This document shows, one piece after another, positions 16,075 to 36,159 of a DNA stretch of 64,000 nucleotides. Below the pieces are notes generated by a model. That model saw only the letters and a program-made list of their open reading frames with translations, was not told the DNA's origin and searched no databases. Position 1 is the stretch's first letter; every line of letters begins with the position of its first letter. Source of the stretch: Dictyostelium discoideum (Eukaryota); NCBI GenBank assembly GCA_000004695.1, contig CM000155.2, positions 2,272,001-2,336,000 of the forward strand, written 5' to 3'. A program made the position numbers and the translations under genes.

Positions 16075-16129
<55 letters not shown>

Positions 16130-16645: not shown

Positions 16646-16715
16646 TTTAAATTTGTACTGTGCTTATTTAAAAAAAAAAAAAAAAAAGAAAAAATCAAAA
16701 AAAAAAAAAAAAAAA

Positions 16716-16748
<33 letters not shown>

Positions 16749-17489
16749 TAAAGATTTAATTATTTTATAAATAGAAAATTTAAAAAAAATTATTGTCCTT
16801 TTATTTTAAATTAAATATTAAATAAATAAAAATAAACATATACATATATATTAATTTTTGGTGATTATAAATTCAATCTTTAGCTTTATTACAAAAAAAA
16901 GTGGGTGAAAATAAGAAATTGTTTTTTTTTTATTTTTATTTTTTTTTCATTTTTTTTTTTATTTTTTTTTTAAAAAAGATAAAACATTGTTATTAACTTT
17001 TTTTTTATATCTTAAAATCATTAAGAGTTTCTAATTAAAAAAAAAAAAAAAAATTAAAAATAGAAATAAATAATAATAACTATTTTTTGAAATTATCAAT
17101 CTATTTTTATCTTTTTTTTTTTCAATTATCTAATTTGGGATATCTAAATTAAATTCCAAGATTAAAATAGTGTGTTATTGTTGGTTGATTCAATACCCCA
17201 AAAAAAATAAAAAAAAAAATAATAAAAAATCAGGTTCACTTAGAGACACTAGTTCTCATTAGTCGGGTCATTTTTTTTTTTTATTTCTTAAATTAATTGT
17301 GTTCAATTTTTTTTTTTTTTTTTTTTTTTTTAATAACCTTCTATATTTTGTTAATAAACTTTGAAATGTTCAACTATTTTTTTTTAAAAGTTTAAACTCT
17401 TTTTAATACAAATAAATAATAAAGGGTTATTTTCAAAATAAATTAAAATTAATAATTATTTTTTTTTTTTTTTTTTTTGAAGATAAATT

Positions 17490-19847
17490 TTATTTAAAAG
17501 TTAAAGAATAATTAAAAATAGTATTTAAATTTTTAATGAAAAAATTATAATGTTGAGAAGAAGTTTTTTTTGATAAATAATTAATTTTTGAATTATTAAT
17601 TGATAAATGACCAATTAAAAATAATTTAATTAAAATTTTATGTAAAATAAAACTATTACCTAGTTTTCTTTCTAATGAAATTGAACAAAATGATAAATCA
17701 TTTAAAAAACCACCATTATAAACAGAAATGAACAAAAGTTCAACATTTAAAGAAAAACCAAAAGATTTAATTTGAGAATTTGTAAAGATAATCGAATTTA
17801 AAATTGCAAAACGAATAATATTTAATGCAAAGGTTTTTGATCTCCATTTCGAAAGTCCTTTTAAAATATTTTCATTTGAAATTAATTGAGCAATTACAAA
17901 TTTAGAATTTTTTTTATTTATTTTACTAATTGAACTATAGATTTGACCTAAAATTTCGAAAACCATATTAGATACGATATCAGTATACACCTTTCTCAAT
18001 TGAGAATTGTAAAGCCACTTTCTTGCAGTTCCTGGGTTACTTTTTAACCATGACACAAACTCTGGATTAAATTTAAAATTTAGTATACTAATATCATAGA
18101 TTTTATTATCATCTTCTTGATTAAAAAAAAAAGAAGACCTTTCATCAAGTTCTACATAATGTTGTAAAATTATTGGTGAAATGTAATTAAAAAGGTCAAT
18201 TAAATTACATTGAATTGAATGAATTAACAATAAAATAAGATTTGTTTTAAAAAGTGATGGAGATGATCCATCACCAAAGCATATATTACCATGGTTGATA
18301 ATATTCTCTAAAAAACATTTATGTAATTCTTTATTACTACTACTACTGCCAGATTCAAATGCTTTTTTAATTTGATTATAATTATACTTTTTTGGAAACC
18401 TTTTAAAATAAGATTTTAATGCATTCACATCTTGATTCTTGATAATAACATTAAGAATTTCTAATGGATTATAAAAAAATGGTATTTCTTTTTCAAAAAG
18501 ATTTGATTCTATCATTTCTTTATTAACTGATTGTAAAAAGTAGTAATCAATATATTTGTGTTGTGGGAGTGGTAAAGTCTCAAACTTGACCTGTTCTCTT
18601 TTTCCAATTTTTCTAAGTTGGTAATCACAAACCCAAGAGATTTTAACATTATATAAGTTTTTTAATTCTTCAAAATAATTATCATTTAACCATATTGCTA
18701 CATCTGAATCATATATTAATCTTTGTTTGTGAATTGGTTCTTTATCTCTTTGAAAATATTTCCAGTAAAAATTTTTACATAAAACTTTTACAATATCTAG
18801 GTTAAAACTTTCAAAAATAAATCCAATTGGTATATCGAATGATTCCAATATCGATCTCTCTATACTAATTCCTAATAATTTCACAATTTCATCATTATTT
18901 TCTAATAGTGCTAAAGGTAACTTTGTTGGTGGTAGTGGTGTATATTTATATTTTTCTAATAATAATTTAAGCATAAATTGATCTTGGTATTTACTAATTG
19001 CACTAAATAAATTATTTATTGCTGAATAGAATGGATCATACAATATTTGAAATTTATTTGGGAAATATTCTAAAATTAGTGAACCAAATAGTTTTGATTG
19101 ATTTGTTTTAATTATATACTCTAAATAATGTACCAATTCTCTGAATGATACATCAATTTTTAATTCACTAAGGATGTATCTAAAAATTTCTTTTTTCTTT
19201 TTAATTTCATCATCATCATCATCATCATCACCATTTACTGTTCTTTTAAATTTATCAAACATTTTAAATATTGGTTCTATATCTATGGTTTCAATTTCGA
19301 GATACTTATTATTTATCAAGTATTTAAGTTTCTTTAAATCACAAATACCAATTATAATTGAATTATAATCAATTCTAACCAATCGAGCTATATATGGACT
19401 ATTATAATTTAATTTATTATGATATTTAATTTCCTTATTGGTTTTTTTAATTTGTTTATTAATTTCTGTTATTTCATTTTTAAATGTTTCAAAAACAATT
19501 TCAAATAATTCAAATGGTAATTCCCTCCATTTATATAATCTTTTTAAACAATATTCACTAAAATTTAAAAAATGTTTACTTTCTATTATTGATTTATTAT
19601 TATTATTATTATTATTATTTTTAAAATATTTATTATAATTATTTATTTTTTCAATTAATAATGGTTGATTTTTTGTTTTTAATATTAATTCAAGTGGGAA
19701 ATCATAATAGTTATATCCAATATATGTTTGTTCTTTATTGTGTTGTGTAATATATGAATAGATTTTATTGATTAAATATTTATTTTTGAATACTTTATAA
19801 AATAAAAAATCCATTTTCATGTTTGGGTTGGGGGAGAAAATGATCAT
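17490..19847 (-). CDS. Paralog family member B
   Basis: 785-aa ORF. The track ORF starts at 19847 (MIIFSPNPNMKMDF...). The family-consistent start is the Met at 19814 (MDFLFYKVFKNKYLINKIYSYI...YNYYDFPLELILKTKNQPLLIEKINNY). Confidence 0.7.
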   Translation of the reverse strand: MIIFSPNPNMKMDFLFYKVFKNKYLINKIYSYITQHNKEQTYIGYNYYDFPLELILKTKNQPLLIEKINNYNKYFKNNNNNNNNKSIIESKHFLNFSEYCLKRLYKWRELPFELFEIVFETFKNEITEINKQIKKTNKEIKYHNKLNYNSPYIARLVRIDYNSIIIGICDLKKLKYLINNKYLEIETIDIEPIFKMFDKFKRTVNGDDDDDDDEIKKKKEIFRYILSELKIDVSFRELVHYLEYIIKTNQSKLFGSLILEYFPNKFQILYDPFYSAINNLFSAISKYQDQFMLKLLLEKYKYTPLPPTKLPLALLENNDEIVKLLGISIERSILESFDIPIGFIFESFNLDIVKVLCKNFYWKYFQRDKEPIHKQRLIYDSDVAIWLNDNYFEELKNLYNVKISWVCDYQLRKIGKREQVKFETLPLPQHKYIDYYFLQSVNKEMIESNLFEKEIPFFYNPLEILNVIIKNQDVNALKSYFKRFPKKYNYNQIKKAFESGSSSSNKELHKCFLENIINHGNICFGDGSSPSLFKTNLILLLIHSIQCNLIDLFNYISPIILQHYVELDERSSFFFNQEDDNKIYDISILNFKFNPEFVSWLKSNPGTARKWLYNSQLRKVYTDIVSNMVFEILGQIYSSISKINKKNSKFVIAQLISNENILKGLSKWRSKTFALNIIRFAILNSIIFTNSQIKSFGFSLNVELLFISVYNGGFLNDLSFCSISLERKLGNSFILHKILIKLFLIGHLSINNSKINYLSKKTSSQHYNFFIKNLNTIFNYSLTFK
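19818..19845. repeat. Inverted-repeat arm 1 (CATGTTTGGGTTGGGGGAGAAAATGATC)
   Basis: Its reverse complement lies at 20190-20216. Arm 1 overlaps the 5' end of family gene B. Confidence 0.85.
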
Positions 19848-20189
19848 TTTTATTTTTTTTTTTTTTTTTTTATTTTTTTTTTTTTTTTATTAATTTATTA
19901 ATAAAAATTTTTTTTTTTTAACTTATTTTTTATTTTTTATTTTTTTATTTTTTTTTTTTTTTTTGTGATTTAATTTTATTTTTAGTATGAATTTAGTGGA
20001 GAGAACTCAAAATACACACGATATAATATATAAAAATTAATGTAATCATTCTGTTTATTTTTTTTGTTTTTTTTTTTTTATTTTTAGAATTCAATTATTT
20101 ATCATTCTTTTTTTTATGTAATTGTTTTTTTTTATTTTGAAAAGAGAGGGAATATATTTTATATCAATGATAAAAAAAAAAAAAAAAAA

Positions 20190-20216
20190 GATCATTTTCT
20201 CCCCCAACCCAAACAT
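20190..20216. repeat. Inverted-repeat arm 2 (GATCATTTTCTCCCCCAACCCAAACAT)
   Basis: Perfect 27-bp reverse complement of 19819-19845, flanked by complementary A/T homopolymers. Sits just 3' of the stop of family gene C. Confidence 0.85.
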
Positions 20217-20228
20217 TTTTTTTTTTAT

Positions 20229-20631
20229 TTAAAATTTTAATTTATTAAAATTTTTATTAAAAATAGTAATATTGTTATAACTAGCATTATGTATCATTGA
20301 AAAAGAAAATAATGCATTGATTTCTGGAAATTTATTTGTTGATGATATTGTTCTTAATAAACAATTATCTACATTTTTAAATGACATATATCCATTAAAA
20401 AACATTTTAATTAAAATTTTATGAAATACAAATCCTTTACCATTATTTTTATCCAAAAATGGTCTACAACATAATATTTCATTAATACTATTTTCATAAA
20501 ATGATTTTACCAAATTTTCATCATCGAAACCAAATGATTTGAATTGATTATCTGAATCTAAAACAATACCATTAATAACAGCAAAACGAATGATATTTAA
20601 AGGAATATTTTTCAAATCCTTTTTATTTTCA

Positions 20632-20669
<38 letters not shown>

Positions 20670-20673
20670 TTTA

Positions 20674-20768
<95 letters not shown>

Positions 20769-22702
20769 TTTATGATTATTATTATTAATATTTTCATACA
20801 TAATTTGATTTGATGTTAATTCTCTAATGATAAACTTTGAATCTGATTTTAAAGTTTTATTAATAATTTTATAATCAACTTTTTCATTTAAAATTTGAAA
20901 GACAGTGTGTGATAATGCATCAAAATAAAATGATTTTAAATGTGAATTGAAAAACCATTTTCTTGAGATATTATTATTTTTAGCACTTTTTAAACATTTA
21001 ATAAATTGGTGATTATATATAAAATCTTTTAAAGTAATCTTTTCATTATTCTTTATTGCTAATGAAATAAAATTAAAAAGTTCAAAAGAACCATAATCAA
21101 CACATGAAGCCAAAAATGAAATAATTGAATTCATATTATGATTTTTTGGAAAATTACAATTAAATATATTTTCTATAAAACAATTAAATAATTGTTTATT
21201 TCCACTATAAAATGCACTATTAACTTGATCGAAATTGTAATAATTTGGAAAAATATTAAAATAAGCAATCAATACTTCAACATTTTCTTCCTTTATTATA
21301 ATATCAACTAATGATGTTAAAAATGAATATTTATTATGAAGTTGTGCTAAAATTGAATATTCATTATAATTATTATTATTATTATTATTATGCTGTTGTA
21401 CTAAAAATTGTTCAGACTCTATCATTTCTTTATTGATAAAATCAAAATAACAATTTGCAATATATTGAAAAGTTTCAAATTTAACCTGTTCCCTTTTATT
21501 ATTGATTCTTAAATGTAAATCACATAGACATGAGATTTTAATTTCGTTTTTCTTTTTTTTTAATAATAAAAAATAATTATCACTTAAAAACAATGCAATT
21601 TTAGGGTCATATATTATTTGAATAGTTGAATTTCTATAAAATCTATCTGTTGTTTCATTGAATAAACTTGATTTTAATGCTTCACAAAGTACCTTTACAA
21701 TTTCTAAATCAAAATTGTTTAAAATAAATTCAAGTGGAAAATTCATTGCTTCTAAAGTTGATTTACTTATTCTAATACCTAACAATGTAAAAATTTCTGA
21801 TTCAGTTGTTGGTGTTAGTGTTGGTGTTGCTGTTGGTGGTGCAAGTGTTGTTGTTGTTGTTGTTTTTGTTGATGATGATGGTGGTGCAGGTGTTGTTGGT
21901 GCAAGTGTTGTTAGTGTTGGTGTTGGTGGTGGGGGTGGTGGTGGTGTTGGTGTTGTTGGTGGCGCAAGTGTTGTTAGTGTTAGTGTTGGTGTTGGTGTTG
22001 GTGTTGGTGTTGGTGTTGGTGTTGGTGTTGGTGGTGTTGGTGGTGTTGGTGGTGGTGTATATTTATATTTTTCTAATAATAATTTAAATATATATTGGTC
22101 TTTGTATTTAGAAATTATTTGAAATACATTGGTTAATTGATTATGTATAATTGGTAATTCTTTTGGGAATAAATCTATAATTTGTTTTCCAAAAATTTTC
22201 GATTGATCTTTAATCATAATTTCACATAAATATGTTGTTAATTGAGTAAATGATAAATCAATTTTAGATTCGTTTATTAAATATTGAAATATTTCTTTTA
22301 ATTTTATTTCTTCATCATGATGATCATGATTCACTTGGATTCTATAAATCATTTTTCTTTTTCTTTTTAATTTTCTTGAATGTATTAAACTAAAAACTGA
22401 ATTGATATTGATTGACTCAGTTTCGAGTAATTGATTATTTATTATATATTTGAGTTTATCTAAATCTCCATTAATGATTAGATAACTATGGTATAGTATT
22501 TTTTCTTTTCCATATTTATTTATTTTAATTTTTCCAATTATTTTTTCAATTTCTTTTTTAAATGTTTGAAAAATAAGTTCAAATAATTCTAATGATAATT
22601 CACTCCATTTATATAATAGTTTTAAACATTGTTCATTAAATGTTAAAAAATGTTTACTATTTAATATTGATATTTCTGAATATTTATTATTTTTATTATT
22701 AC

Positions 22703-22760
<58 letters not shown>

Positions 22761-22955
22761 TATAAAATATTTAATATAATTATTTAATTTTTCAATTAAT
22801 AATGGTTGATTCTTTGTTTTTAAAACAAGTTCTAATGGGAAATCATAATAGCTGTATCTGATTAATCTTTGTTCTTTATTATACTCTGAAATATATGAAT
22901 AGATTTTTTTCTTTAAATAAATATTTTTAAAAACCTGACTGAATAATAAATCCAT
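20229..22955 (-). CDS. Paralog family member C (expanded Pro/Thr linker and poly-Asn)
   Basis: 908-aa ORF. About 90% identical to members D and E outside the low-complexity inserts. PTPTPT...TTLAPP linker of about 130 aa. N55-like tract (ATT)n at 20640-20790. Confidence 0.75.
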
Positions 22956-23095
22956 TATATATATATAAAATAATATGTTGCTAGTTAAAAAAAAAAAAAA
23001 AAGAAAAAGAAAAATGAAAAATGAAAAAAAAAGTTTTTATAAATATATTTTTTTTTTTTTTTTTGATAAATTCTCAAAAAAAAAAAAAAACAAAA

Positions 23096-23103
23096 TCCCA
23101 CAA
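23096..23103 (+). promoter_or_regulatory. DUSE-like box (TCCCACAA) upstream of a Class I RNA gene
   Basis: Matches the Dictyostelium upstream sequence element consensus [AT]CCCA[CT]AA. About 75 nt upstream of the GTTGAC stem start. Confidence 0.55.
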
Positions 23104-23178
23104 CCAAAAATAATAAAATATGTATCACGATATATATTAATAATTATAAAAATAATTAAATGTGCAAAAACACAAATA

Positions 23179-23242
23179 AGTTGACCTTACAGCAATCTTA
23201 ACAATTTTATCACATTATAAAAAAAAACCTCAGTCAACTGTA
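23179..23242 (+). ncRNA. Class I small ncRNA gene (copy 1)
   Basis: aGTTGAC-CCTTACAGCAA-tcttaacaattttatcacattataaaaaaaaacctca-GTCAACt. The 5' and 3' ends form a 7-bp stem (AGTTGAC/GTCAACT), with the conserved 11-nt Class I motif CCTTACAGCAA directly after the 5' stem. Length about 60 nt. Confidence 0.65.
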
Positions 23243-23608
23243 TAAAGTGATAAATTTTTTTAAGTTCCTAACTTCCGAATATTAAGAGAGGTCCGAGGTT
23301 CGAAACTCCGTATAGTAACCAATAAAAGTGACCCAAATGGGGCTCAGCTTAGTTGTAGGCCCACTAAAGCTAAAAACTACAAAAAACAATTTGAATCACC
23401 CAAAAACCAAAAACCAATCAAAAAAAAAAAAAAAAAGATTTAAAAAAAGAATGGAAAAAAAGTTATACATAACTTTTTTTTATTTAAAATTTTAATTTAT
23501 TAAAATTTTCATTAAAAATAGAAATATTATTATAACTAGAATTACGTATCATTGAAAAAGAAAATAAGGCATTGATTTCTGGAAATTTATTTGTTGATGA
23601 TAATGTTC

Positions 23609-25951
23609 TTAATGAACGATTTCCTTTATCTTTAAATGACATATATCCATTAAAAACATTTTAATTAAAATTTTATGAAATACAAATCCTTTACCATTAT
23701 TTTTATCCAATAATTGTTTACTACATAATATTTCATCAATACTATTTTCATATAACGATTTTACTAAATCTTCATCATCGAAACCAAATGATTTGAATTG
23801 GTTATCTGAATCTAAAACAATACCATTAATAACAGCAAAACGAATGATATTTAAAGGAATATTTTTCAAATCCTTTATATTTTCATTATTATTATTAATA
23901 TTATTATCATTATTATTACAATACATAATTTGGTTTGATATTAATTCTCCAATGATAAACTTTGAATCTGATTTTAAAGCTTTACGAATAATTCCATAAT
24001 CAACTTTTTTATTTAAAATTTGAAAGACTGTATGTGATAATGCATCAGAATAAATTGATTTTAAATGTGAATTGATAAACCATTTTCTTGAGATATTATT
24101 ATTATTTTTTGCACTTTTTAAACATTTAATAAATCGATAATTATTAATAAAATCATTTAAAGTAATCTTTTCATTATTCTTAATTGTTAATGAAATAAAA
24201 TTAAAAAGTTTAAAAGAACCATAATCGATACATGAAGCCAAAAATGAAATAATTGAAATTATATTATAATTGTATGGAAAATTACCATTAAATATATTTT
24301 CTATAAAACAATTAAATAATTGTTTATTTCCACTATAAAATGCACTATTAACTTGATCGAAATTGTAATAATTTGGAAAAATACTAAAATGAGCAATCAA
24401 TACTTCAACATTTTCTTCCTTTATTATAATATCAACTAATGATGTTAAAAATGGATATTTATTAAAATTAATTTGCTGTTGCGCTAATAATGAATTATTA
24501 TAATAATTATTAATATTATTATTATTTTGTCGTGCTAAAAATTGTTCAGACTCTATCATTTCTTTATTGATAGTATCAAAATAACAATTTAAAATATATT
24601 GAGAAGTTTCAAATTTAACCTGTTCCCTTTTACCAATGATTCTTAATTGTAAATCACATAGCCATGAGATTTTAATTTCATTTTTCTTTTTTTTTAATAA
24701 TAAAAAATAATTATCACTTAAAAACAATGCAATTTTAGGGTCATATATTATATGATTAGTTGGGCATGTATTGAATTTATCTGTTGTTTCATTGAATAAT
24801 CTTGATTTTAATGCTTCACAAAGTACCTTTACAATTTCTAAATCAAAATTGTTTAAAATAAATTCAAGTGGAAAATTCATTGCTTCTAAAGTTGATTTAC
24901 TTATTCTAATACCTAACAATGTAAAAATTTCTGATTCGGTTGTTGTTGATGTTGCTTTTGTTGCTGTTGTTGGTGGTACAAGTGTTGGTGTTGGTGTTTG
25001 TGTTGGTGTTGGTGTTGGTGTTGGTGGTGTTGGTGGTGTATATTTATATTTATCTAATAATAATTTAAATATATATTGATCTTTAAATTTAGAAATTATA
25101 TCAAATACATTGGTTAATTGCTTATGTATGATTGGTAATTCTTTTGGAAATAATTCTATAATTTGTTTTCCAAATATTTTCGATTGATCTGTAATCATAA
25201 TTTCACATAGATATGTTGTTAATTGAGTAAATGATAAATAAATTTTATATTCATTTATTAAATATTGAAATATTTCTTGTAATTTTATTTCTTCATCATG
25301 ATTCACTTGGATTGTAATTTCAGAACGAATCATTTTTCTTTTTCTTTTTAATTTTCTTGAATGTATTAAACTAAAAACTGAATTGATATTGATTGACTCA
25401 GTTTCGAGTAATTGATTATTTATTATATATTTGAGTTTATCTAAATCTCCATTACTGATTAAATTAATATGGTGTTGTATTTTTTCTTTTCCATCTTTAT
25501 TTATTTTTTTAATTTTTCCAATTATTTCTTCAATTTCTTTTTTAAATGTTTGAAAAATAAGTTCAAATAATTCTAATGATAATTCACCCCATTTATATAA
25601 TAGTTTTAAACATTGTTCATTAAATGTTAAAAAATGTTTACTATTTAATATTGATATTTCTGAATACTGATTATTATCGTTATTATTATTATTTTTATTA
25701 TTACTATTATTATTATTTTTTTTTTTATTACTATTATTTTTATTATTATTATTATTTTTAAAATATTTATTAAAATTATTTAATTTTTCAATTAATAATG
25801 GTTGATTCTTTGTTTTTAAAACGAGTTCTAATGGGAAATCATAATAGTTATATCTGATTAATCTTTGTTCTTTATTATACTCTGAAATATATGAATAGAT
25901 TTTTTTCTTTAAATAAATATTTTTAAAAACCTGACTGAATAATAAATCCAT
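23609..25951 (-). CDS. Paralog family member D (C-terminus altered by a 1-nt deletion)
   Basis: 780-aa ORF. Collinear with C and E up to ...GKGFVFHKILIKMF, then a frame change (ttaaaaacatttt versus E ttaaaaaacaattt) gives a short aberrant tail. DNA homology continues 3' of the new stop. Confidence 0.7.
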   Translation of the reverse strand: MDLLFSQVFKNIYLKKKIYSYISEYNKEQRLIRYNYYDFPLELVLKTKNQPLLIEKLNNFNKYFKNNNNNKNNSNKKKNNNNSNNKNNNNNDNNQYSEISILNSKHFLTFNEQCLKLLYKWGELSLELFELIFQTFKKEIEEIIGKIKKINKDGKEKIQHHINLISNGDLDKLKYIINNQLLETESININSVFSLIHSRKLKRKRKMIRSEITIQVNHDEEIKLQEIFQYLINEYKIYLSFTQLTTYLCEIMITDQSKIFGKQIIELFPKELPIIHKQLTNVFDIISKFKDQYIFKLLLDKYKYTPPTPPTPTPTPTQTPTPTLVPPTTATKATSTTTESEIFTLLGIRISKSTLEAMNFPLEFILNNFDLEIVKVLCEALKSRLFNETTDKFNTCPTNHIIYDPKIALFLSDNYFLLLKKKKNEIKISWLCDLQLRIIGKREQVKFETSQYILNCYFDTINKEMIESEQFLARQNNNNINNYYNNSLLAQQQINFNKYPFLTSLVDIIIKEENVEVLIAHFSIFPNYYNFDQVNSAFYSGNKQLFNCFIENIFNGNFPYNYNIISIISFLASCIDYGSFKLFNFISLTIKNNEKITLNDFINNYRFIKCLKSAKNNNNISRKWFINSHLKSIYSDALSHTVFQILNKKVDYGIIRKALKSDSKFIIGELISNQIMYCNNNDNNINNNNENIKDLKNIPLNIIRFAVINGIVLDSDNQFKSFGFDDEDLVKSLYENSIDEILCSKQLLDKNNGKGFVFHKILIKMFLMDICHLKIKEIVH

Positions 25952-26088
25952 TTAATATATTAATAGGTTGTTAATCAAAATAAAAGAAAAAAAAAAGAAA
26001 AAGAAAAAAAAAGTTTTTTTAATTTTTTTTTTTTTTTTTTGATAAATTCTCAAAAAAAAAAAAAAAATAAAAAAAAGAGGAAAGAAAA

Positions 26089-26096
26089 TCCCACAA
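26089..26096 (+). promoter_or_regulatory. DUSE-like box (TCCCACAA), copy 2
   Basis: Same spacing (about 75 nt) to the second Class I RNA. Confidence 0.55.
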
Positions 26097-26170
26097 CCAA
26101 AAATTATAAATATTTATCAGGATATATATTAATTATTTTAAAAATAATTAAATGTGCAAAAACACAAATA

Positions 26171-26233
26171 AGTTGACCTTACAGCAATCTTAACAAAATT
26201 TTTTCTGAATAAAAAAACCTAAGTCAACTGTAT
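26171..26233 (+). ncRNA. Class I small ncRNA gene (copy 2)
   Basis: AGTTGAC-CCTTACAGCAA-tcttaacaaaattttttctgaataaaaaaacctaa-GTCAACTgtat. A partial copy of the 3' half (aaaacctaagtcaactgtatc) recurs at 26321-26345. Confidence 0.65.
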
Positions 26234-26559
26234 CTTTTATAAAATTTTTTCTAAAACCTAAGTCTTTTTTTTTTGAATTGGATAACGCAATTATTATTTG
26301 CTTCTCCTTGAGGTTATTCTAAAACCTAAGTCAACTGTATCTTTATAAAATTTTTTAAGGTTCGAACTCCCAAGCTAAAGATGTCCTAGGTTCGAAACTC
26401 GGTCACGAATCAAATTAATGTGACCCAAAATGGGGCTCACCTTGTTGTAGTCTTACTAAAGCTAAAAACAATCAAACCACCCAAAAACAGTAAAAAACTA
26501 AAAACCAACCAACATTCAAATTTAAAAAAGAATGGAAAAAAGTTATATATAAATATATT

Positions 26560-26982
26560 TTAAAATTTTAATTTATTAAAATCTTCATTAAAAATAGTAA
26601 TATTGTTATAATTAGCATTACGTATCATTGAAAAAGAAATTAATGCATTGATTTCTGGAAATTTATTTGTTGATGATAATGTTCTTAATAAACGATTTCC
26701 TTTAACTTTAAATGACATATATCCATTAAAAAACAATTTAATTAAAATTCTATGAAATACAAATCCTCTACCATTATTTTTATCCAATAATGGTCTACTA
26801 CATAATATTTCATTGATACTATTTTCATAAAATGATTTTACCAAATTTTCATCATCGAAACCAAATGATTTGAATTGAATATCTGAATCTAAAACAATAC
26901 CATTAATAACAGCAAAACGAATGATATTTAAAGGAATATTTTTCAAATCCATTTTATTTTCATTATTATTTTCATTATTGTA

Positions 26983-27072
<90 letters not shown>

Positions 27073-29019
27073 ATATATAATTTGGTTTGATGTTAATTCT
27101 CTAATGATAAACTTTGAATCTGATTTTAAAGCTTTATGAGTAATTCTATAATCGACTTTTTTGTTTAAAATTTGAAAGACAGTATGTGATAATGCATCAA
27201 AATAAAATGATTTTAAATGTGAATTGATAAACCATTTTCTTGAGATATTATTATTACTTTTAACACTTTTTAAACATTCAATAAATTGATAATTACTAAT
27301 AAAATATTCTATACTAATATTTTCATTATTCTTTATTGTTAATGAAATAAAATTAAAAAGTTTGAAAGAACCATAATCGATACATGAAGCCAAAAATGAA
27401 ATAATTGAAAATATATTATAATTGTATGGAAAATTACCATTAAATATATTTTCTATAAAACAATTAAATAATTGTTTATTTCCACTATAAAATGCATTAT
27501 TAACTTGATTGAAATTGTAATAATTTGGAAAAATATTAAAATAAGCAATCAATGCTCCAACATCTTCTTCCATTACTATAATATCAACAAATGATGTTAA
27601 AAATGAATAATTATTATTATAATAATTATTATGCTGTTGTGCTAAAAATTGTTCAGACTCTATCATTTCTTTATTGATAAAATCAAAATAACAATTTGCA
27701 ATATATTGAGAAGTTTCAAATTTAACCTGTTCCCTTTTACCAACGATTCTTAATCGTAAATCACATAGCCATGAGATTTTAATTTCGTTTTTCTTTTTTT
27801 TTAATAATAAAAAATAATTATCACTTAAAAACAATGCAATTTTAGGGTCATATATTATTTGAATAGTTGAATTTGTATTAAATTTATCTGTTGTTTCATT
27901 GAGTAATCTTGATTTTAATGCTTCGCAAAGTACCTTTACAATTTCTAAATCAAAATTGTTTAAAATAAATTCAAGTGGGAAATTCATTGCTTCTAAAGTT
28001 GATTTACTTATTCTAATACCTAACAATGTAAAAATTTCTGATTCGGTTGTTGTTGGTGTTGGTGTTGGTGTTGGTGTTGGTTTTTTTGTTGGTGTTTGTG
28101 GTGGTACAAGTGTTGGTGTTGGTGTTGGTGGTGGTGTTGGTGGTGTTGGTGGTGGTGTATATTTATATTTATCTAATAATAATTTAAATATAAATTGGTC
28201 TTTGTATTTAGAAATTATTTGAAATACATTGGTTAATTGATTATGTATAATTGGTAATTCTTTTGGAAATAATTCTATAATTTGTTTTCCAAATATTTTC
28301 GATTGATCTTTAATCATAATTTCACATAAATATGTTGTTAATTGAGTGAATGATAAATCAATTTTTGATTCTTTTATTAAATATTGAAATATTTCTTGTA
28401 ATTTTATTTCTTCATCATGATGATCATGATTCACTTGGATTGTAATTTCAGAACGAATCATTTTTCTTTTTCTTTTTAATTTTCTTGAATGTATTAAACT
28501 AAAAACTGAATTGAAGTTGATTGATTCAGTTTCGAGTAATTGATTATCTATTATATATTTGAGTTTATCTAAATCTCCATTACTGATTAAATTAATATGG
28601 TGTTGTATTTTTTCTTTTCTATATTTATTTATTTTTTTAATTTTTCCAATTAATTTCTCAATTTCTTTTTTAAATGTTTGAAAAATAAGTTCAAATAATT
28701 CTAATGGTAATTCACTCCATTTATATAATAGTTTTAAACATTGTTCATTAAATGTTAAAAAATGTTTACTATTTAATATTGATATTTCTGAATACTGATT
28801 ATTATTATTATTAATATTATTATTTTTAAAATATTTATTATAATTATTTAATTTTTCAATTAATAATGGTTGATTCTTTGTTTTTAAAACGAGTTCTAAT
28901 GGGAAATCATAATAGTTATATCTGATAGATCTCTGTTCTTTATTATACTCTGAAATATATGAATAGATTTTTTTCTTTAAATAAATATTTTTAAAAACCT
29001 GACTGAATAATAAATCCAT
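26560..29019 (-). CDS. Paralog family member E
   Basis: 819-aa ORF with an intact family C-terminus (...NNITIFNEDFNKLKF*). Confidence 0.75.
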
Positions 29020-29087
29020 ATTATATATAAAAAAAAAAAAGAAAAAGAAGTTTTTTTTTTTTTTACAAATTGTTGTAGGGAATTTTC

Positions 29088-29157
29088 AATAAAATTTCAC
29101 TACAGTAGCGTAGTGAATTTTATTATTTAATTTCACTACAGTAGCGTAGTGAAAAAA
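29088..29157 (+). repeat. Two direct copies of a 23-bp hairpin-capable motif (ATTTCACTACAGTAGCGTAGTGAA), spaced 40 bp apart
   Basis: Each unit contains the 6-bp inverted repeat CACTAC...GTAGTG around AGTAGC. Lies next to the retroelement remnant. Confidence 0.7.
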
Positions 29158-29580
29158 AAAAATCACTGACCCTAAATTTTTTTTTTTTTCAAAAAACAAA
29201 TAAAGTTTATTAAATTATTATCTTTTATTTGAATATTAGCTCTATTTAAGGTTTTTTAATTTTTTTTTTTTAATTTAATTTTTTTTTTTTTTAATTTAAT
29301 TTTTTTTTTTTTTTTTGCGCCAAAATTTTTTTTTTTTTTCCCCAACAAAACTTTTTTTTTTTTTTTTTTTTTTTTTATTTTCATTTTCCCAAAATGAAAC
29401 AAGATAAATTATTTAAAATTTATTGAAGATAATAATTTTGAAAATACTAAACATAAAAATTATAAATTTTTACATGATGAGTAAATATTTTTCCTTACCA
29501 TAACACAATCATTTTTTAAATTCTGACCAATAAAAAACAGAAACAGAAAAGAAAAATTATTTAGAATTGAAAAAAAAGTC

Positions 29581-30424
29581 ATGAATTGTGGCGGAGATAG
29601 AAATATATCAAAAGAAGTGTGTTTAGAAGTAATTAATGATTATAGAATGGTATCACTCTGGGAAGAAATGCATAAAGGTCATATAGGAAGAGATGCAACC
29701 TATGGGAACTACAAGACTAAATATTATAATATGGGATTGTATTCTTTTGTATCTGATGCAGTAGATACGTGTGACATTTGCCAACGAAATAGAATAAAAG
29801 GTTTGGTATCAATCATTTTTTATATGATGTTTTGTAACTTTTATATTAAAACTCTGTGAAAGTATGGCACTGCGATAATGGACGTGAATTTAAAAACAAA
29901 GTCCAAAAAGAATTCCTAAAACTTTTTCCAGGCTCCAAGTCAGCACATGGAGCTCCTCGTACACCAACAACTCAAGGTATGGTAGAAAGATTGAATCGAA
30001 CTATCAAGGAGAGGATCTCAAAATTAAAACAACAAGAGTATGATATTGTGAACAATATAAATTATCGATATGTTTATTAATTAATCATTTATAAATAAAT
30101 TTTAGTTTTCTTGATGGTACTTCTAGGTCTCTTTCTGAACTATTAAAACAAGCTTTGTATGATTACAATAATACAAAAACAAGAACAATTAAAATGACAC
30201 CATCTCAAGCTGTTGGTATTGTTCCTTTGTTTATTAATGTTCAATCAGAACAAGACTCTCAATCAATTGGTGTTTCAGATGTTTCAAAAGAAGAAAGAAC
30301 AGCTATTATTCTTGAAAATCTCACAAGTTACCAAAATCAATGGAATTCAAAACCACCAAAGGGATTGAAAGTTGGTGATACTGTACTCTTTCTAGAAATT
30401 AAAAAAAATAATGTAAGTAATTAA
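29581..30424 (+). mobile_element. Degenerate LTR-retrotransposon (Ty3/gypsy-type) integrase remnant
   Basis: Three broken ORFs. (1) HHCC zinc finger: H-KGH-IGRDATYGNYKTKYYNMGLYSFVSDAVDTCDICQ. (2) C-terminal half of the rve core: WHCDNGREFKN...GAPRTPTTQGMVERLNRTIKERI. (3) C-terminal SH3-like region (GLKVGDTVLF). The DD part of the DDE triad is missing and the reading frames are broken. Confidence 0.7.
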
Positions 30425-30479
30425 AACATAAAGATTAATAATATATGAAACAGTAATAATTATCAAATTTTATATTTAA

Positions 30480-30698
30480 TTCTAATAGATAATATTGATT
30501 TTAGGTATAATAATAAGGGGGTTCTGGAAGACACTATACTGCTCTATAAACTTGAGTTTTTGGAAGACGGACTAATCGCCTGAATACAAGGTCATACTCT
30601 GTGTTGGNGAAGGGAACAAACCATGGATGTTTATAACATGCGAACTTGATATTGTTAGAGCATTGTCCTCATACATGAAGATACNGACTCTTTTACTT
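30480..30698 (+). other. GC-richer non-coding block adjoining the integrase remnant (possible LTR or UTR fragment), running into the assembly gap
   Basis: Composition differs from the AT-rich spacer. Bounded by the N-run. Confidence 0.25.
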
Positions 30699-30802
30699 CT
30701 GGNNNNNNNNNNNNNNNNNNNNNNNNNNNNNNNNNNNNNNNNNNNNNNNNNNNNNNNNNNNNNNNNNNNNNNNNNNNNNNNNNNNNNNNNNNNNNNNNNN
30801 NN
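30699..30802. other. Assembly gap (N run)
   Basis: 104 N. Confidence 1.
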
Positions 30803-31127
30803 TATTAAAAGTTTCAAAATCTAATTCCTTCCAAACTAGTAATGATTTTAAACATTCTTTATTAAAATCTAAATAATATTTGGTAATGATACTACTACTG
30901 CTAATGACTTCATCATCATTTGATTCACCTTTGATTATATATTTATTATAAAATTTAATTTTCTCTAATAGTAATATTTGATTTCTACTCTTTATTACCA
31001 TCTCTAATGGGAATTCGTAAAAATTATATGTTAAATATAATAAACTCTCATTATATTGTCTAATAAATTTAAATATAATATTATTTAAATAATTATTTTT
31101 AAAAACACTAAAAAATAATGTATCCAT
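30803..31127 (-). CDS. Paralog family member F, N-terminal fragment; the 3' part is lost to the gap and retroelement
   Basis: MDTLFFSVFKNNYLNNIIFKFIRQYNESLLYLTYNFYEFPLEMVIKSRNQILLLEKIKFYNKY... The likely start Met is at 31127-31125. The ORF runs into the N gap. Confidence 0.55.
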
Positions 31128-31390
31128 TGAAAAATGTAAAAAAAAATGCAAAAAATAAAATAATGATGTGTTTTTTCTCCCAAAAATAATAATAATAAAA
31201 AAAAAAAAATTTAAAAATCTTGCAAATATCCAATTAAAAAAAAAAAAAAATTTTTTTTTTATTTTAAAATCTATACTTTTTTAGATAAATAAAGAGTACT
31301 TATAATAATAATACTCTTTATTCTTCAAAATAAAAAAAATGAACGATAAATAATTTAATTGTAAAAATAAACTTTTTGGTTGAAAAAAAA

Positions 31391-33155
31391 TTATTTAAAT
31401 AAAAATGGTTTAAAAACTTTTATTCTTTTTAATCTATCAATATAAATAATTCTATCTTGGTAATTTAATTTTGAAATAACAGAAATTAAATATGATTGAT
31501 ATGTTAAATAAATTCGATAATTAATTTCTTGACTATTATTTTTGAAGAAATTTGAATTATTAGCAACTTCTAATAAATAATTAAATGGATAATCATTTTC
31601 TAAAAGTGATGAAAATAGTAATAATAAATGTAATTGTTTTTTATAGATAACCATTGATGTAAACTGTTTATTATTATTATATTTTGAAAGTAATTTTGGA
31701 ATTATTAAATTGAAAATATTAAATTCATCAATTTCATTACATTCACTAAAATATTTGATAACGTTCATGTCTAGCTCTAATAATAAAGTTTGATAAATCT
31801 CATCAGAGTATTGATTAATTAATAATTCCAATGATTGATAATCGTTTAAAGCAAGTAGACATTTTTTAATTGATAATTTTGAAAAGAATATATATCCATC
31901 AAATTTTATTAAAAACTTTAATTGATTAATTCCAATATATTCACAATCTTTTGAAAAATCCCACCTCAACTGTTCATTTGAAAAAAGTTGGATATTTTGA
32001 TTTAATATTTTATTATTTGATATACTTGAATATGTTAAATAAAATGGTGGATTTTTAACACTACTACCACTATCACTATCACCACTTCCACTACTATTAC
32101 TATTACTATTATTATCAATTTTATTTTGATCAATAGAGTCATATATCATTAAATTTAAATGATTTTTTAATAGATATAGTGATATATATGGGTCAGAGAT
32201 TATGATTCTATTATTTTTTGATGAACTATAATTATAAATGATATTTGGGAATGGTAATTGAAATTCTCTATTGTCTTGATGATCTTTTATAACTAATTCG
32301 TCAAAAAATCCATAAAATAATGAATTTGATTTATAGATTAATAAATAATCAATATCTAATAAATCTATAACCATTTTATTAAATTTAACTTGATATTCAG
32401 TTTTTTCAAATAGATATCTTGGTGGTGGCGGTGATGATGACGATGATGATGATGATGATAATGATGATGATGATGATGATGATAGGTCAATATTATATAG
32501 TTGAACAATTTTTAATATTAATAATTTTATCATTTCTCTATCACCTTTTTCCAATGATATTGATGTTAAATTATATATTTGTTCTATTTTATTTTGATAA
32601 CCACCTATAATTGAAGGTTTCTCTAATTTTTCAATGAAAAATTTACCGTATCGATTTGTTGAATTTTCTTTTACTATCTTTATTAAAATTGTACAAATTA
32701 TACGATTTGTTATTAAAGGTAGTTTGGTAATTGATAATGAAGATAGAAAATCGAAAAATTCAATAACTTGTTCCATTGGGTATGTTGGATTTGAAAATAT
32801 ATCTATCGAATAATTAGCTAAATAATTTGAAAGCATTGATTTAAATACTCGATTTCTTTCTTCTTCTATCTTTAGTGGTGGTGGTGGTGATTGTAGTAAT
32901 GATGATTGTAGATATGGGAGTGGGTATGGTAGTGAATTTAATAAAAATAATTTCAATATTCCAATATTTTCATTTTCAATTAAATCTTGAAAATATTTTG
33001 GATTATCATACATTTCTAGTGACTGAATTTCATTTTCAAATGTTTTAAAAATTAATTTAACAATTTCTGAATCAACTCTCTTCCATTTAAATAAATATCT
33101 TAAACAATCTTTATCTATTTTTAATAAATTTTCATTTTCTATTATTGTTATTTTA

Positions 33156-33238
<83 letters not shown>

Positions 33239-33430
33239 TGTATTATTATGTAATTTTATTTTTTCAATTAATAGGTGTTGATTTTTAGTTTTAATTATTG
33301 ATAATAATGGAATTTGATAATAGTTGTAAGTTTTTGTATATAAAAGTGATTTATTTATTTGTTTTATTTTTAAAAAAATTAATGACCTTAAATATATATT
33401 CTTAAAAACTTTAAAAAAAATATCATCCAT
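31391..33430 (-). CDS. Paralog family member G (divergent)
   Basis: 679-aa ORF. MDDIFFKVFKNIYLRSLIFLKIKQI...YNYYQIPLLSIIKTKNQHLLIEKIKLHNN. Asn29 tract, a Ser-rich run, PPPP. Confidence 0.7.
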
Positions 33431-33520
33431 TTAGTGTTAAAGATATATTTTTCTTTTTTTTAAATTAAAAACAAAAAATGAAAATAAAAAAAAAAATAAA
33501 AAAAAATAAAAAAAAGTTGT

Positions 33521-33578
<58 letters not shown>

Positions 33579-34270
33579 TCATTCTTTTTTTGAAATGGGT
33601 TTTATTTCGATCAACAACGAGTAGGGAATATTTTTTATATAAAAATATAGATTTAAAAAAAAAAAAAAAATATATTTTTTTTTAATTCAAATTTGGATAT
33701 TTGAAAACAGAATGGTTCCATTCATTTTTTTTATTTTTTTATATAAAAAATCATTTTGTGCATTATTGAAGGCTCAATTTTTTATTCCCCAAATCCTTAC
33801 TAAAAAAAAAAAAAATCAAATAATTGTTTTTAAAAAAAAAATGAAAAATAAAATGAAAATATTGGGGATATAATTTTTTTTTTTAGTTTAAAAATTAATG
33901 TTAAAAGAATATAATTCTTTCATTTTGACCAATTATCTTTTTTTATTATTAATATTATAAATTGATTATTTTTTAAAAAAAAATTTTTATTTTGATATAA
34001 AAAATAAATTTTTTTTTTTCATTTTGGTATTAAAAATAGCAAATGAAACCAAATATTTACCAGGGTGATTATATGATAATCACACCATTTTCTTTTTGGC
34101 TTAAGTTACACAATGAAATCTTGTAATTTTCCCAAAATATAACCAATCACAATTTAAATACTTTATCATAATAACTTTAAAAATAAAAATTATTATTTGT
34201 AAAGGAATGATGTTCTTAATAAATTTTTTCCCCCCAATTTTATTAAAAAAAACTAATTAGTTTAGTAAAC

Positions 34271-34315
<45 letters not shown>

Positions 34316-34938
34316 GTAAAATTGTTAGAATTAGTTAAAAAAAAAACTAAAAAAAAAAAAAAAAAAAAAAATACAATTTAGGAAAGACAAAGTTTTTGTG
34401 AAAAAACTAATAAACAAAATTGATATTTTTTTTAAAAAGTAAACGAAAAGTAAATTATACAAAACGATCCTAATTAGGACGTGTCATCATTTTTTTTTTT
34501 TTTCATATTTATGTATAACCCCATTGTTTTATTTTTTTATTTTTTTTTTTATTTTTTATTTCATTTTTTTAATTTTTTTTTTTTTTTTTTTTAATTTTTT
34601 ATTTTTAAATTTTTTTTTTAACAAAAAGGATCTCATTATTTTAAAATTCTTAAAAAATTAACATAAGGATCGTTTTCTTATGATTTTCTCAACAATTTAA
34701 TTCACAAAGAATAAAAAAAAAGTTGGCTATACCGAAAAAAAAAAAAAAAAAAAAAAACTATAAAAAGATTTTCATTTTTTTTTTTTTTTTTTGGAATAAT
34801 TTTATTTTTAGAACCATAAAAACAAAAAAATAAAATAAAAACAAAAAAATAAAAACGATTTTTATTTTTAATCTCACACATAATTATAAAAACGTATTAG
34901 ATTAGTTTAACAAAAACAAAAAAAAAAGAAACTATTGA

Positions 34939-35299
34939 ATGTCTGATGATTATGAACTAAAGGAATTGCAGCCGCCTGAGGGTGCGAACTGCAATTATAA
35001 TATCAATACACCTCAATATGAAAATAACAACAATAATAATAATAATACAAGTGGTAATGAATCACCAAATATTTTAAATAGTGAAAATCAATTCAATCAA
35101 GTTGCAAATGAATTAGAAAATGATTCAAAACAATTCTTTTCAAATCAAGACCCTGAAATGAATGTTGAACATTCTAATGTTGCACAAAATGAACAAGATT
35201 TTAAACTACGTAGTTATTTTGAAAATTCTCAACGTATTGCTTTAGGAAATGGTCAAAAACCAAAGAAAATGGGTATTTCAATTAGAAATTTAACAGTTG
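34939..35299 (+). CDS. ABC transporter G family (PDR-type, full-size), exon 1
   Basis: N-terminus ...[12 protein letters not shown]. Donor GTAAAT at 35300, phase 1. Confidence 0.75.
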
Positions 35300-35529
35300 G
35301 TAAATATTTTTTATTATTTTCATTCGAAATTTCAAATTTTATTTTTATTTTCATTTTTTTTTTATTTTTTTTTTTTTTTTAAAAATATCTTTTTTTTGAT
35401 TTGATTGTTTTGATTGTTTTTTATTTTATTTATTATTATTTTAAAACTAATATTTATTTTATTTATTTATTTATTTATTTATTTTATTTTATCTATTTTA
35501 TTTATTTTTTTATTATAATTAATTTTTAG

Positions 35530-35840
35530 TTGGAAAAGGTGCAGATATATCAGTAATTTCAGATTTATCAACACCATTTGTAACTATTTTTAATTTATTT
35601 AGACCATCAACATGGAGGAAATCAAGTGGTAGCACATTTGATATCTTACATGATGTTACTTTATTTAACCGAGATGCTGAAATGCTTTTAGTATTAGGTC
35701 GTCCAGGCGCTGGCTGCTCAACATTATTACGTGTAATTTCAAACCAACGTAGTTCTTATGTTAGTGTATCAGGTGATGTAACTTATGGTGGTATTAACTC
35801 TGATGAATGGAAAAATTTTAAGGGTGAAAGTATTTATACT
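35530..35840 (+). CDS. ABCG transporter, exon 2 (NBD1 Walker A)
   Basis: Acceptor TAG at 35527-35529. [13 protein letters not shown]...[19 protein letters not shown]. Donor GTATGT at 35841, phase 0. Confidence 0.75.
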
Positions 35841-35847
35841 GTATGTA

Positions 35848-35878
<31 letters not shown>

Positions 35879-35988
35879 TTTTTTTTATTTTTTTTTTATT
35901 TTTTAAAAATGCATAAAAAAATTATTTAAAATATTTATTTATTGTTTTTATTATTATTGTTATTATTATTATTTTAAAAATAATGTAG

Positions 35989-36159
35989 CCAGAAGAGGAT
36001 ACTCATCATCCAACATTAACAGTTCGTGAAACATTGAATTTTGCATTAAAATGTAAAACTATTCATAATCGGTTACCAGATGAAAAGAAAAAAACTTTTA
36101 GAAAAAAAATTTATGATTTATTAGTAGGAATGTTTGGTATTTCAAAACAATCTGATACT
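35989..36159 (+). CDS. ABCG transporter, exon 3
   Basis: Acceptor TAG at 35986-35988. [19 protein letters not shown]... Donor GTAAAT at 36160. Confidence 0.7.

Follow-up and report, generated by a model that had tools for sequence, protein, structure and literature searches.

Introduction

Class I RNAs of Dictyostelium are mostly cytoplasmic and developmentally regulated (PMC7919456). Every expressed Class I gene is preceded by a Dictyostelium upstream sequence element (DUSE), and high-scoring candidates without a DUSE at the correct distance are not expressed; a second promoter element, the TGTG box, is known from D. discoideum only, according to Kjellin et al. (PMC7919456). Published structure prediction and in vitro probing of one member, DdR-21, indicate that the stem is paired and that the motif CCUUACAGCAA is largely unpaired (PMC7919456). 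Rnp1A, an RRM protein, is a direct binding partner of DdR-21; when DdR-21 is lost, early development is disturbed and fruiting bodies are more numerous and smaller, and Kjellin et al. suggest that the RNA titrates RNA-binding proteins (PMC7919456). Transcription of these genes by RNA polymerase III (Pol III) is a published conjecture drawn from the T-runs that lie downstream of many Class I genes (PMC7919456). Here we describe a locus of this kind in a 64,000-nt stretch of D. discoideum AX4 chromosome 6 (chr6; contig CM000155.2, positions 2,272,001 to 2,336,000), to which we refer as the window and whose own numbering is used throughout. The feature under study is an RNA gene at 26172–26231, together with a fragment that follows it. 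At a probability of roughly 0.93, we regard this feature as the known Class I RNA DdR-60, adjoined by a non-functional fragment annotated as r61.

A second known system bears on the fragment. In the TRE elements of D. discoideum, the hallmarks of non-LTR (long terminal repeat) retrotransposition are an oligo(A) tail, extreme shortening at the 5′ end and target-site duplications (TSDs) of variable length; among these elements, TRE5 inserts about 47 bp upstream of position +1, at a distance of roughly 100 bp or more to the B box (PMC5006619, PMC5391098, PMC5911963).

Results

The RNA gene is DdR-60

The whole window was scanned with the Rfam model Dicty_Class_I_RNA (RF01414; gathering cut-off, 41.5 bits), and two loci only scored above the cut-off. 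The first, at 26172–26230, matches the model over its full length (1–56) with 53.5 bits (E = 1.5e-7), and the second, at 23180–23240, scores 57.0 bits (E = 1.9e-8). Both sequences agree exactly with the curated DdR-60 and DdR-59, respectively, in the fasta file of Kjellin et al. 2021 (PMC7919456), and a single offset, 2,272,000, places the chr6 coordinates of dictyBase r59, r60 and r61 on the window. A first-pass annotation, made from the letters of the window, had proposed a Class I non-coding RNA (ncRNA) gene at this position, and this proposal is borne out by the passing RF01414 score and by identity to a curated RNA validated by RNA-seq.

DdR-60 (dictyBase r60, DDB_G0295635) lies on the plus strand at 26172–26231 (chr6 2298172–2298230), a placement supported by both RF01414 and the curated fasta. 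The gene has the stem-motif-loop-stem layout of its class, as the first-pass annotation had described: a 5′ stem GTTGAC (26172–26177), the 11-nt motif CCTTACAGCAA (26177–26187), a variable loop, an A-run followed by CCT, and a 3′ stem GTCAAC (26223–26228) that forms part of GTCAACTG (26223–26230) and leads into the Class I 3′-terminal CTGT (26228–26231). Its length of 59–61 nt fits that of Class I RNAs (~60 nt). The putative promoter comprises a DUSE, TCCCACAA, found by regular expression on the plus strand exactly where it had been reported (26089–26096), and the TGTG box AAATGTG at 26150–26156 (plus strand), which starts 61 nt from the start of the DUSE and lies 15 nt ahead of the mature 5′ G. 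This arrangement corresponds to the published form of the element, [A/T]CCCA[C/T]AA about 60 nt upstream of the transcription start site or the TGTG box. Moreover, Table S2 of Kjellin et al. gives for r60 a DUSE_seq of TCCCACAA, a duse_dist of 74, the TGTG box AAATGTG and an inter_dist of 60, and their own covariance model (CM) score for DdR-60 is 51.2 (PMC7919456).

The same layout recurs 2,992 bp upstream, a spacing that had been given as 2.95 kb, where the DdR-59 locus (r59, DDB_G0295633; plus strand, 23096–23241) carries a DUSE at 23096–23103, a TGTG box at 23158–23164 and the gene itself at 23180–23241 (chr6 2295180–2295241). Exact matches to the motif CCTTACAGCAA number only two in the 64-kb window. 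Other DUSE matches, at 3238 and 8092 and, on the minus strand, at 7831 and 18568, have nothing ncRNA-like downstream and no Rfam match. Both RNAs have been detected by RNA-seq: DdR-60 with 543,127–1,555,072 reads and a read-coverage flag of 1, second only to DdR-21, and DdR-59 with 3,416–7,833 reads (PMC7919456). In an independent AX4-like assembly (GCA_054883475.1), 99.8% identical over 10 kb, the r59 and r60/r61 regions are exactly those of the window, and thus the structure described here is not an assembly artefact.

Conservation of stem and motif, and divergence of the loop

Further copies of this sub-family were taken from two assemblies deposited as D. discoideum, GCA_054859355.1 (hereafter L002) and GCA_054859385.1 (L003), in which the loci were reached via the neighbouring protein family and RF01414 matches above the cut-off number three and five, respectively. 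Mean pairwise identity was calculated over the nine intact genes from AX4, L002 and L003, with a tenth copy, L3d, left out. It is 1.00 for each of the 5′ stem, the 11-nt motif, the A-run with CCT and the 3′ stem, 0.95 for the DUSE, 0.81 for the spacer between DUSE and TGTG box, and 0.69 for both the loop and the 3′ flank; the DUSE TCCCACAA is unchanged in 9 of the 10 loci. The first-pass annotation had quoted loops that differ between the two window copies, which they do, and had read a preserved stem and motif beside a changing loop as the mark of a functional structured RNA. It had also named the contrary outcome, a stem and motif no better kept than the surrounding spacer once more copies are sampled. 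With this larger sample the stem and motif remain better kept than the spacer, and the contrast with the loop persists over nine genes in three genomes.

Between the two AX4 copies themselves, loop identity is 0.58, stem, motif and A-run are at 1.00, and the promoter spacer is at 0.89–1.00. The well-kept promoter spacer, together with the absence of compensatory changes between the two copies, might suggest that their identical stems and motifs merely record a recent duplication of neutral spacer, without any selection on an RNA. We give this account practically no credence: a neutral duplicate of this kind does not explain a loop so much more diverged than the elements on either side of it, nor the persistence of this pattern in all nine intact genes, nor the confinement of motif and stem mutations to the one copy that lacks a DUSE, and orthologous loop types are found in D. 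firmibasis (see below). Taken with the detection of both RNAs by RNA-seq, the published expression and the sampling here refute it.

The copy left out of the identity figures, L3d (L003 9472–9530, minus strand), arose by tandem duplication of a Class I gene and lies downstream of L3e, the positional ortholog of DdR-60. The duplication breakpoint lies just past the DUSE, such that L3d has none, and its RF01414 score of 42.2 bits is barely over the cut-off. Alone among the ten copies it is mutated in the motif (CCTTACTGCAA), and it has two changes in the 3′ stem (GTCGGC). To judge from these sequences, this decay is what would be expected after loss of expression, and L3d can serve as a natural case of a Class I gene decaying into a pseudogene.

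Stem pairing was also compared over a wider set, the 54 Group-4 Class I genes. All six stem pairs are kept, and pairs 2–5 have changed on both sides; the stem GUUGAC/GUCAAC occurs in 34 of the 54, and other genes keep pairing through double changes. For DdR-60, the GUUGAC-GUCAAC stem is seen in both the minimum free energy (MFE) and the centroid structures, and the 5′ G is present.

Co-amplification with a tandem gene family

The two RNA genes are embedded in a tandem array that occupies the minus strand from 14339 to 33430 and comprises six family paralogs and a 5′ fragment (30693–31151). The encoded proteins, of about 680–910 aa, are uncharacterised; they share a conserved N-terminus and poly-N tracts, include DDB_G0292934 and DDB_G0292950, and matched no Pfam domain. 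Three of the paralogs are 85–86% identical, and the others 27–47%. DdR-60 is divergent from DDB_G0292934 (780 aa; 23609–25951, minus strand; open reading frame (ORF) 100% identical), whose ATG is 221 nt away (26172 to 25951), and DdR-59 is likewise divergent from a paralog with a 908-aa ORF (20229–22955, minus strand), whose ATG is at 225 nt (23180 to 22955). These distances are in close agreement with the value of about 220 bp 5′ of the ATG given by the first-pass annotation. In L002 and L003, the Class I genes lie 187–230 nt from the divergent ATG of a family gene, and therefore the co-duplication of RNA gene and family gene that had been suggested for the window holds in it and in these two further assemblies. 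The accompanying statement of one ncRNA copy per paralog was too broad: a relaxed Rfam scan of 16000–36000 found no Class I gene beyond DdR-59 and DdR-60, and hence only two of the six AX4 paralogs carry one.

A simple mechanism can be proposed. Because the Class I promoter lies within ~140 nt of the divergent start codon (138 nt from the DUSE of DdR-60), an unequal crossing-over that copied the family gene would also have copied the RNA gene, and would in this way have given rise to DdR-59 and DdR-60. A similar pair exists in D. firmibasis, where published coordinates put DfiR-5 and DfiR-3 on a single contig (AJWH01006067.1), in the same orientation and 2.9 kb from each other; the loop of DfiR-5 groups with the DdR-59 type, and that of DfiR-3 with the DdR-60 type. 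On the basis of these loop sequences, the duplication probably predates the divergence of D. discoideum from D. firmibasis. Protein and profile searches with the family (7–8 proteins) returned a sole D. firmibasis match, 32–34% identical and located in a non-syntenic region without a Class I gene, and a search from the neighbouring ABC-G transporter returned mostly fungal and other homologs, with no D. firmibasis ortholog among the matches.

L003 is collinear with the window at ~90–92% nucleotide identity. Across the array (14800–29100), L002 and L003 are collinear at ~83–92%, with differences in copy numbers and in Class I genes. Either the locus is hypervariable or these isolates belong to a distinct lineage; an exact look-up of the ankyrin-gene protein gave matches in AX4-type assemblies only.

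Next in the array is a paralog with an 819-aa ORF (26560–29019, minus strand), the third of the young sub-family among these protein genes, whose stop codon is downstream of the r60/r61 block and whose upstream region differs from that of the other two and is without a Class I gene. Upstream of this paralog, the segments 29581–30080 and 30703–30803 hold degenerate pieces of an LTR-retrotransposon integrase (Integrase_H2C2, rve_3) and an assembly gap of 101 N; to judge by L003, this is where one would look for a third Class I gene. Adjoining the integrase remnant, at 29091–29153, are two tandem copies of a hairpin-forming repeat, aatttcactacagtagcgtagtgaa (TCACTAC...GTAGTGA), which may be a transposon terminus. 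Matches to SNORD28 inside the family genes, at 23–25 bits against a cut-off of 50, recur in each paralog and were treated as chance.

Anatomy and status of r61

The fragment r61 (DDB_G0295637) is placed at 26272–26337 (plus strand; chr6 2298272–2298337) by the GFF file in the Kjellin supplement. Together with r48, r53, r54, r55 and r58, it was dropped by Kjellin et al. from their gene set as a truncated or non-canonical annotation (PMC7919456). The first-pass annotation had also seen a partial copy here, at 26321–26345, and described it as a repeat of the 3′ half. Such a copy does exist, and was annotated earlier as r61, but the fragment, ctaaaacctaagtcaactgtatc, sits at 26319–26341; the 3′ stem is indeed repeated, but as part of what we take to be a short tandem duplication split by a small retro-insert. 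A third copy of the 3′ end, the 14-nt CTAAAACCTAAGTC at 26251–26264, had been missed. With up to three mismatches, the 19-mer AACCTAAGTCAACTGTATC occurs three times, against 0.02 expected.

The rearrangement can be followed base by base. The spacer of DdR-60 is ~107 bases longer than that of DdR-59 and of all loci in L002 and L003. DdR-60 and its own flank extend to 26250. A second unit, a copy of DdR-60 from the 3′ loop through the 3′ stem into the flank, begins as AAAATTTTTTCTAAAACCTAAGTC at 26241–26264 (plus strand) and resumes at 26333–26346. Once the insert and one repeat are taken out, unit 1, AAAATTTTTTCTGAATAAAAAAACCTAAGTCAACTGTATCTTTTAT (26195–26240), leads into unit 2, AAAATTTTTTCTAAAACCTAAGTCAACTGTATCTTTAT, after which AAAATTTTTT appears once more; an alignment of the units with gaps of 7 nt and 1 nt shows identity at all 38 aligned nt, and every unit begins with AAAATTTTTT (three occurrences). 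Within the second unit, a left 14-nt direct repeat CTAAAACCTAAGTC (26251–26264, plus strand) and a right copy of it (26319–26332, plus strand), which we read as a TSD, enclose a 54-nt insert (26265–26318, minus strand) that consists of T10 and GAATTGGATAACGCAATTATTATTTGCTTCTCCTTGAGGTTATT and that we read as a 5′-truncated, poly(A)-tailed retro-copy; its 44-nt tail is AATAACCTCAAGGAGAAGCAAATAATAATTGCGTTATCCAATTC. The T10 run abuts the left repeat. To the right, the 14-mer runs straight on into AACTG(TA), with which the duplicated 3′ stem ends and after which normal flank follows. The 14-nt repeat contains a 'CT' that is found only at the duplication junction, and neither the DdR-59 locus nor any locus in L002 or L003 has the 54-nt insert.

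We infer from this anatomy that r61 is a chimera of retro-insert, TSD and duplicated 3′ stem, and not a Class I gene. Two steps would suffice. First, a tandem duplication of 39–46 nt, arising by slippage or unequal exchange on the AAAATTTTTT microhomology at its bounds, would have doubled the tail of DdR-60, that is, its 3′ loop and 3′ stem together with the flank. Second, the 54-nt tail of a 5′-truncated, poly(A)-bearing retroelement would have entered the second copy and created the 14-nt duplication of CTAAAACCTAAGTC.

Is it possible that r61 is nevertheless a second, independently functional Class I gene? The dictyBase GFF, in which the Soderbom group entered it as class_I_RNA, implies as much, and the fragment has a canonical end, ...GTCAACTG(T), followed by a T-run. 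However, between 26097 and 26272 there is no DUSE or TGTG box besides those of DdR-60, the motif CCTTACAGCAA and the 5′ stem are absent, and in the MFE fold the 5′ end is unpaired with the 3′ stem, such that no terminal stem forms. RF01414 gives no match at E<=10, even in a search of 128 nt, r61 is missing from the published candidate table (CM score >=15) in addition to its exclusion by Kjellin et al., and its 5′ two-thirds is retro-insert that recurs at 61051–61077. A functional r61 is therefore very improbable, and without promoter, 5′ stem and motif the fragment is best regarded as junk.

The second step, the insertion, could be dispensed with if the three copies of the 3′ end (starting at 26216, 26251 and 26319) had arisen by repeated slippage or unequal exchange alone, with the 54 nt as ordinary spacer. 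A/T microhomologies are abundant here, AAAATTTTTT itself occurring three times, the orthologous site in L003 has undergone a different local tandem duplication (L3e-L3d), and the 18-mer of the tail matched no paper in the full-text literature. What slippage leaves unexplained is the T10 run directly after the left 14-mer and the exact identity of the two 14-mers, junction CT included; nor does it account for the recurrence of T9-10 plus GAATTGGATAACGCAATT at a distance of 35 kb, bracketed there by a separate 11-nt direct repeat. We consider this simpler history unlikely.

Alternatively, the 3′ piece of r61 might be what is left of a second Class I gene, once complete and of greater age, that lost its promoter and 5′ half through a deletion between two copies of AAAATTTTTT. 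The junction sequence is the same under either model, and the collinear L003 does have a full but decaying gene, L3d, downstream of L3e. On the other hand, the 3′ segment of r61 is that of DdR-60 over 38 aligned nt, whereas the motif and stem of L3d no longer match those of L3e, and the L003 duplication has other breakpoints, one immediately past the DUSE and one within the downstream block, which makes the two duplication events look independent. Given the identity to the DdR-60 tail and these differing breakpoints, an origin as a relic is the less likely model, although we find it somewhat easier to entertain than slippage alone, and a partial duplication followed by insertion remains our preferred history of r61.

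A second copy of part of the insert

Part of the insert has a second copy in the window. At 61051–61077 (plus strand), AATTGCGTTATCCAATTC followed by A9 is identical in 27 of 27 nt to insert positions 2–28 (26266–26292). This copy spans the T-run and the first 18 nt of the insert; the 18-mer alone has E = 5.6e-5 in a search of the 64-kb window. It is bracketed by its own 11-nt direct repeat, GTGGTAATTAA. We observe as well that the copy lies ~90 nt upstream of a plus-strand ATG near 61166.

Neither copy is placed as a tRNA-directed insertion would be. The sole tRNA gene of the window is at 14132–14204; the insert is neither ~50 bp upstream nor 40–150 bp downstream of one, and its geometry agrees with neither TRE5 nor TRE3 targeting of a tRNA gene. 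A TRE5-like geometry relative to the B-box-like motif described below, which would place the insert about 47 bp upstream of a +1 G accompanied by an A box, was tried and rejected, this motif being just ~57 nt away against the >=100 nt expected. Derivation of the 5′ part of r61 from the loop of the downstream hairpin block, suggested by a GGATAA-GCAAT likeness to L003, was likewise dropped for the stronger 27/27 match at 61051–61077.

The downstream flank

A TTTT run at 26235–26238 (plus strand), starting 5 nt after the CTG end, is a candidate Pol III terminator, and a T6 run follows at 26245–26250 (plus strand). The first run of at least four T residues is at +5 in 9 of the 10 sub-family genes and at +15 in DdR-59. 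Correspondingly, TATCTTTT follows nine of the ten genes (26231–26250 for DdR-60), and the DdR-59 flank (23241–23262) reads TATAAAGTG. DdR-59 reads are ~170-fold below those of DdR-60 despite the best classifier score and a near-identical DUSE/TGTG promoter.

Further downstream, both window genes are followed by a B-box-like motif. GGTTCRANNC has three occurrences only in the window: 14239–14248, 23297–23306 and 26389–26398. The latter two are both GGTTCGAAAC. One lies 57 nt after DdR-59 in the same orientation, and the other 52 nt after the end of r61, which was the end of DdR-60 before the rearrangements. The motif thus lies 52–58 nt downstream of the RNA gene; GGTTCGAAAC also follows L3b, L2b and L3e, and is absent from 4 of the 10 sub-family loci. 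It is the best-conserved part of a GC-richer block (26358–26500, plus strand; 37% GC against ~10% in the adjacent spacer) that contains, in addition to GGTTCGAAAC, a decayed inverted repeat.

From these sequences one can construct a scenario in which the sub-family is organised like Pol III/TFIIIC units, with a T4 terminator at +5 and an exB-like box beyond it, and with the retro-tail inserted between the two in AX4. Under such a scenario the low read number of DdR-59 could be due to loss of the +5 T-run, that is, TATAAAGTG in place of TATCTTTT. We hold this organisation to be doubtful. The copies of GGTTCGAAAC share one ancestor and a B-box-like motif is not rare genome-wide, and for these reasons the motif is a lead and not evidence. 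If the scenario were true, however, it would provide sequence-level support for the published Pol III conjecture and point to a 3′ determinant of abundance.

Several further observations concern the block. A counterpart follows DdR-59 at 23258–23400 (37–40% GC for the two blocks). At L003 9380–9455 the two 20-bp arms of the block pair perfectly into a hairpin (-45.5 kcal/mol, z -8.7), an inverted repeat that has decayed in AX4, and Rfam searches of the block gave chance-level matches only. The block could be a foldback element or one like the miniature inverted-repeat transposable elements (MITEs), or part of the 3′ untranslated region of the family gene on the minus strand. The tRNA gene mentioned above, tRNA-Gln(UUG) at 14132–14204 (Rfam, 67.4 bits), lies 135 nt below 14339, the low-coordinate end of the first paralog, and has a T-run downstream.

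Discussion

As a discovery, DdR-60, DdR-59 and r61 offer nothing new, since all three have already been annotated or published (dictyBase, Rfam and the literature of 2004–2021). What is added here is minor: the anatomy of r61, co-amplification at the level of the unit in other genomes, and the downstream motifs. Nevertheless, the locus demonstrates that the genes of this Class I sub-family are carried along with a tandem family of fast-evolving protein genes, and this explains the clustering of Class I genes and the origin of new copies and of pseudogenes. Testable leads on the polymerase come from the B-box-like motif and from the way in which the flanks of DdR-59 and DdR-60 differ. Moreover, as the first-pass annotation illustrates, a lineage-specific ncRNA family can be recognised from raw sequence.

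A number of observations weigh against parts of this reading, and they are best considered together. The GC content of DdR-60, 28.8%, is a little under the published Class I range of 32–41%, in a window of ~20% GC. Folding stability gives no structure signal, with z = -0.47 for DdR-59, -0.05 for DdR-60 and near 0 for r61, and the identical stems of DdR-59 and DdR-60 provide no covariation within the pair. Such near-zero z-scores fit a 6-bp stem that closes a largely open loop, and support for the stem is comparative only. The gene context of DfiR-3 and DfiR-5 comes solely from published coordinates. With regard to the insert, the copy at 61051–61077 has neither a tRNA gene nor a B box within 500 nt, and the 18-mer matched no paper in the full-text literature, the TRE5-A paper included. 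Finally, protein binding, cytoplasmic location and a developmental role are known from DdR-21 or from the class and not from DdR-60 itself, and Pol III transcription of Class I genes rests on published conjecture.

The insert resembles TRE-type non-LTR insertions in that it is oligo(A)-tailed, 5′-truncated and TSD-flanked and has a second copy with the same 3′ end. It differs from them in having no tRNA gene nearby, and the likeness is one of structure. The downstream motif can be compared in a similar manner with the exB box of D. discoideum tRNA genes: GGTTCGAAAC fits GTTCRANNC in the same orientation and after a T-run, and the tRNA-Gln gene of the window has GGTTCAAATC 35 nt downstream (14239–14248). 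Here, in contrast, GGTTCGAAAC follows a Class I gene and lies within a decayed inverted repeat, and by its sequence it is a candidate TFIIIC site. Among the Class I annotations that were dropped previously, r61 is named in the paper of Kjellin et al.; its anatomy is not given there and is resolved here.

Compared with the Class I family as described (RF01414; Aspegren 2004, Avesson 2011, Kjellin 2021), DdR-60 is the same in sequence and coordinates, in DUSE and TGTG box, in the 6-bp terminal stem, the CCUUACAGCAA motif and the CUGU end, and in its intergenic site, clustering and published expression; the sole deviation is a GC content of 29% against the reported 32–41%. The gene is probably transcribed by Pol III, with the TTTT run 5 nt past the mature end as the likely point of termination. 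The comparison with DdR-21 is particularly close. The two RNAs have in common the stem (GUUGAC/GUCAAC), the motif and the promoter elements, and their read numbers are comparable (0.8–1.8 M for DdR-21, 0.5–1.6 M for DdR-60), whereas their loop sequences are unrelated, and Rnp1A binding, structure probing and the knock-out phenotype come from work on DdR-21. Because architecture is the same and abundance comparable, DdR-60 probably acts as DdR-21 does, with stem and motif providing a platform that would be bound by Rnp1A or by other proteins.

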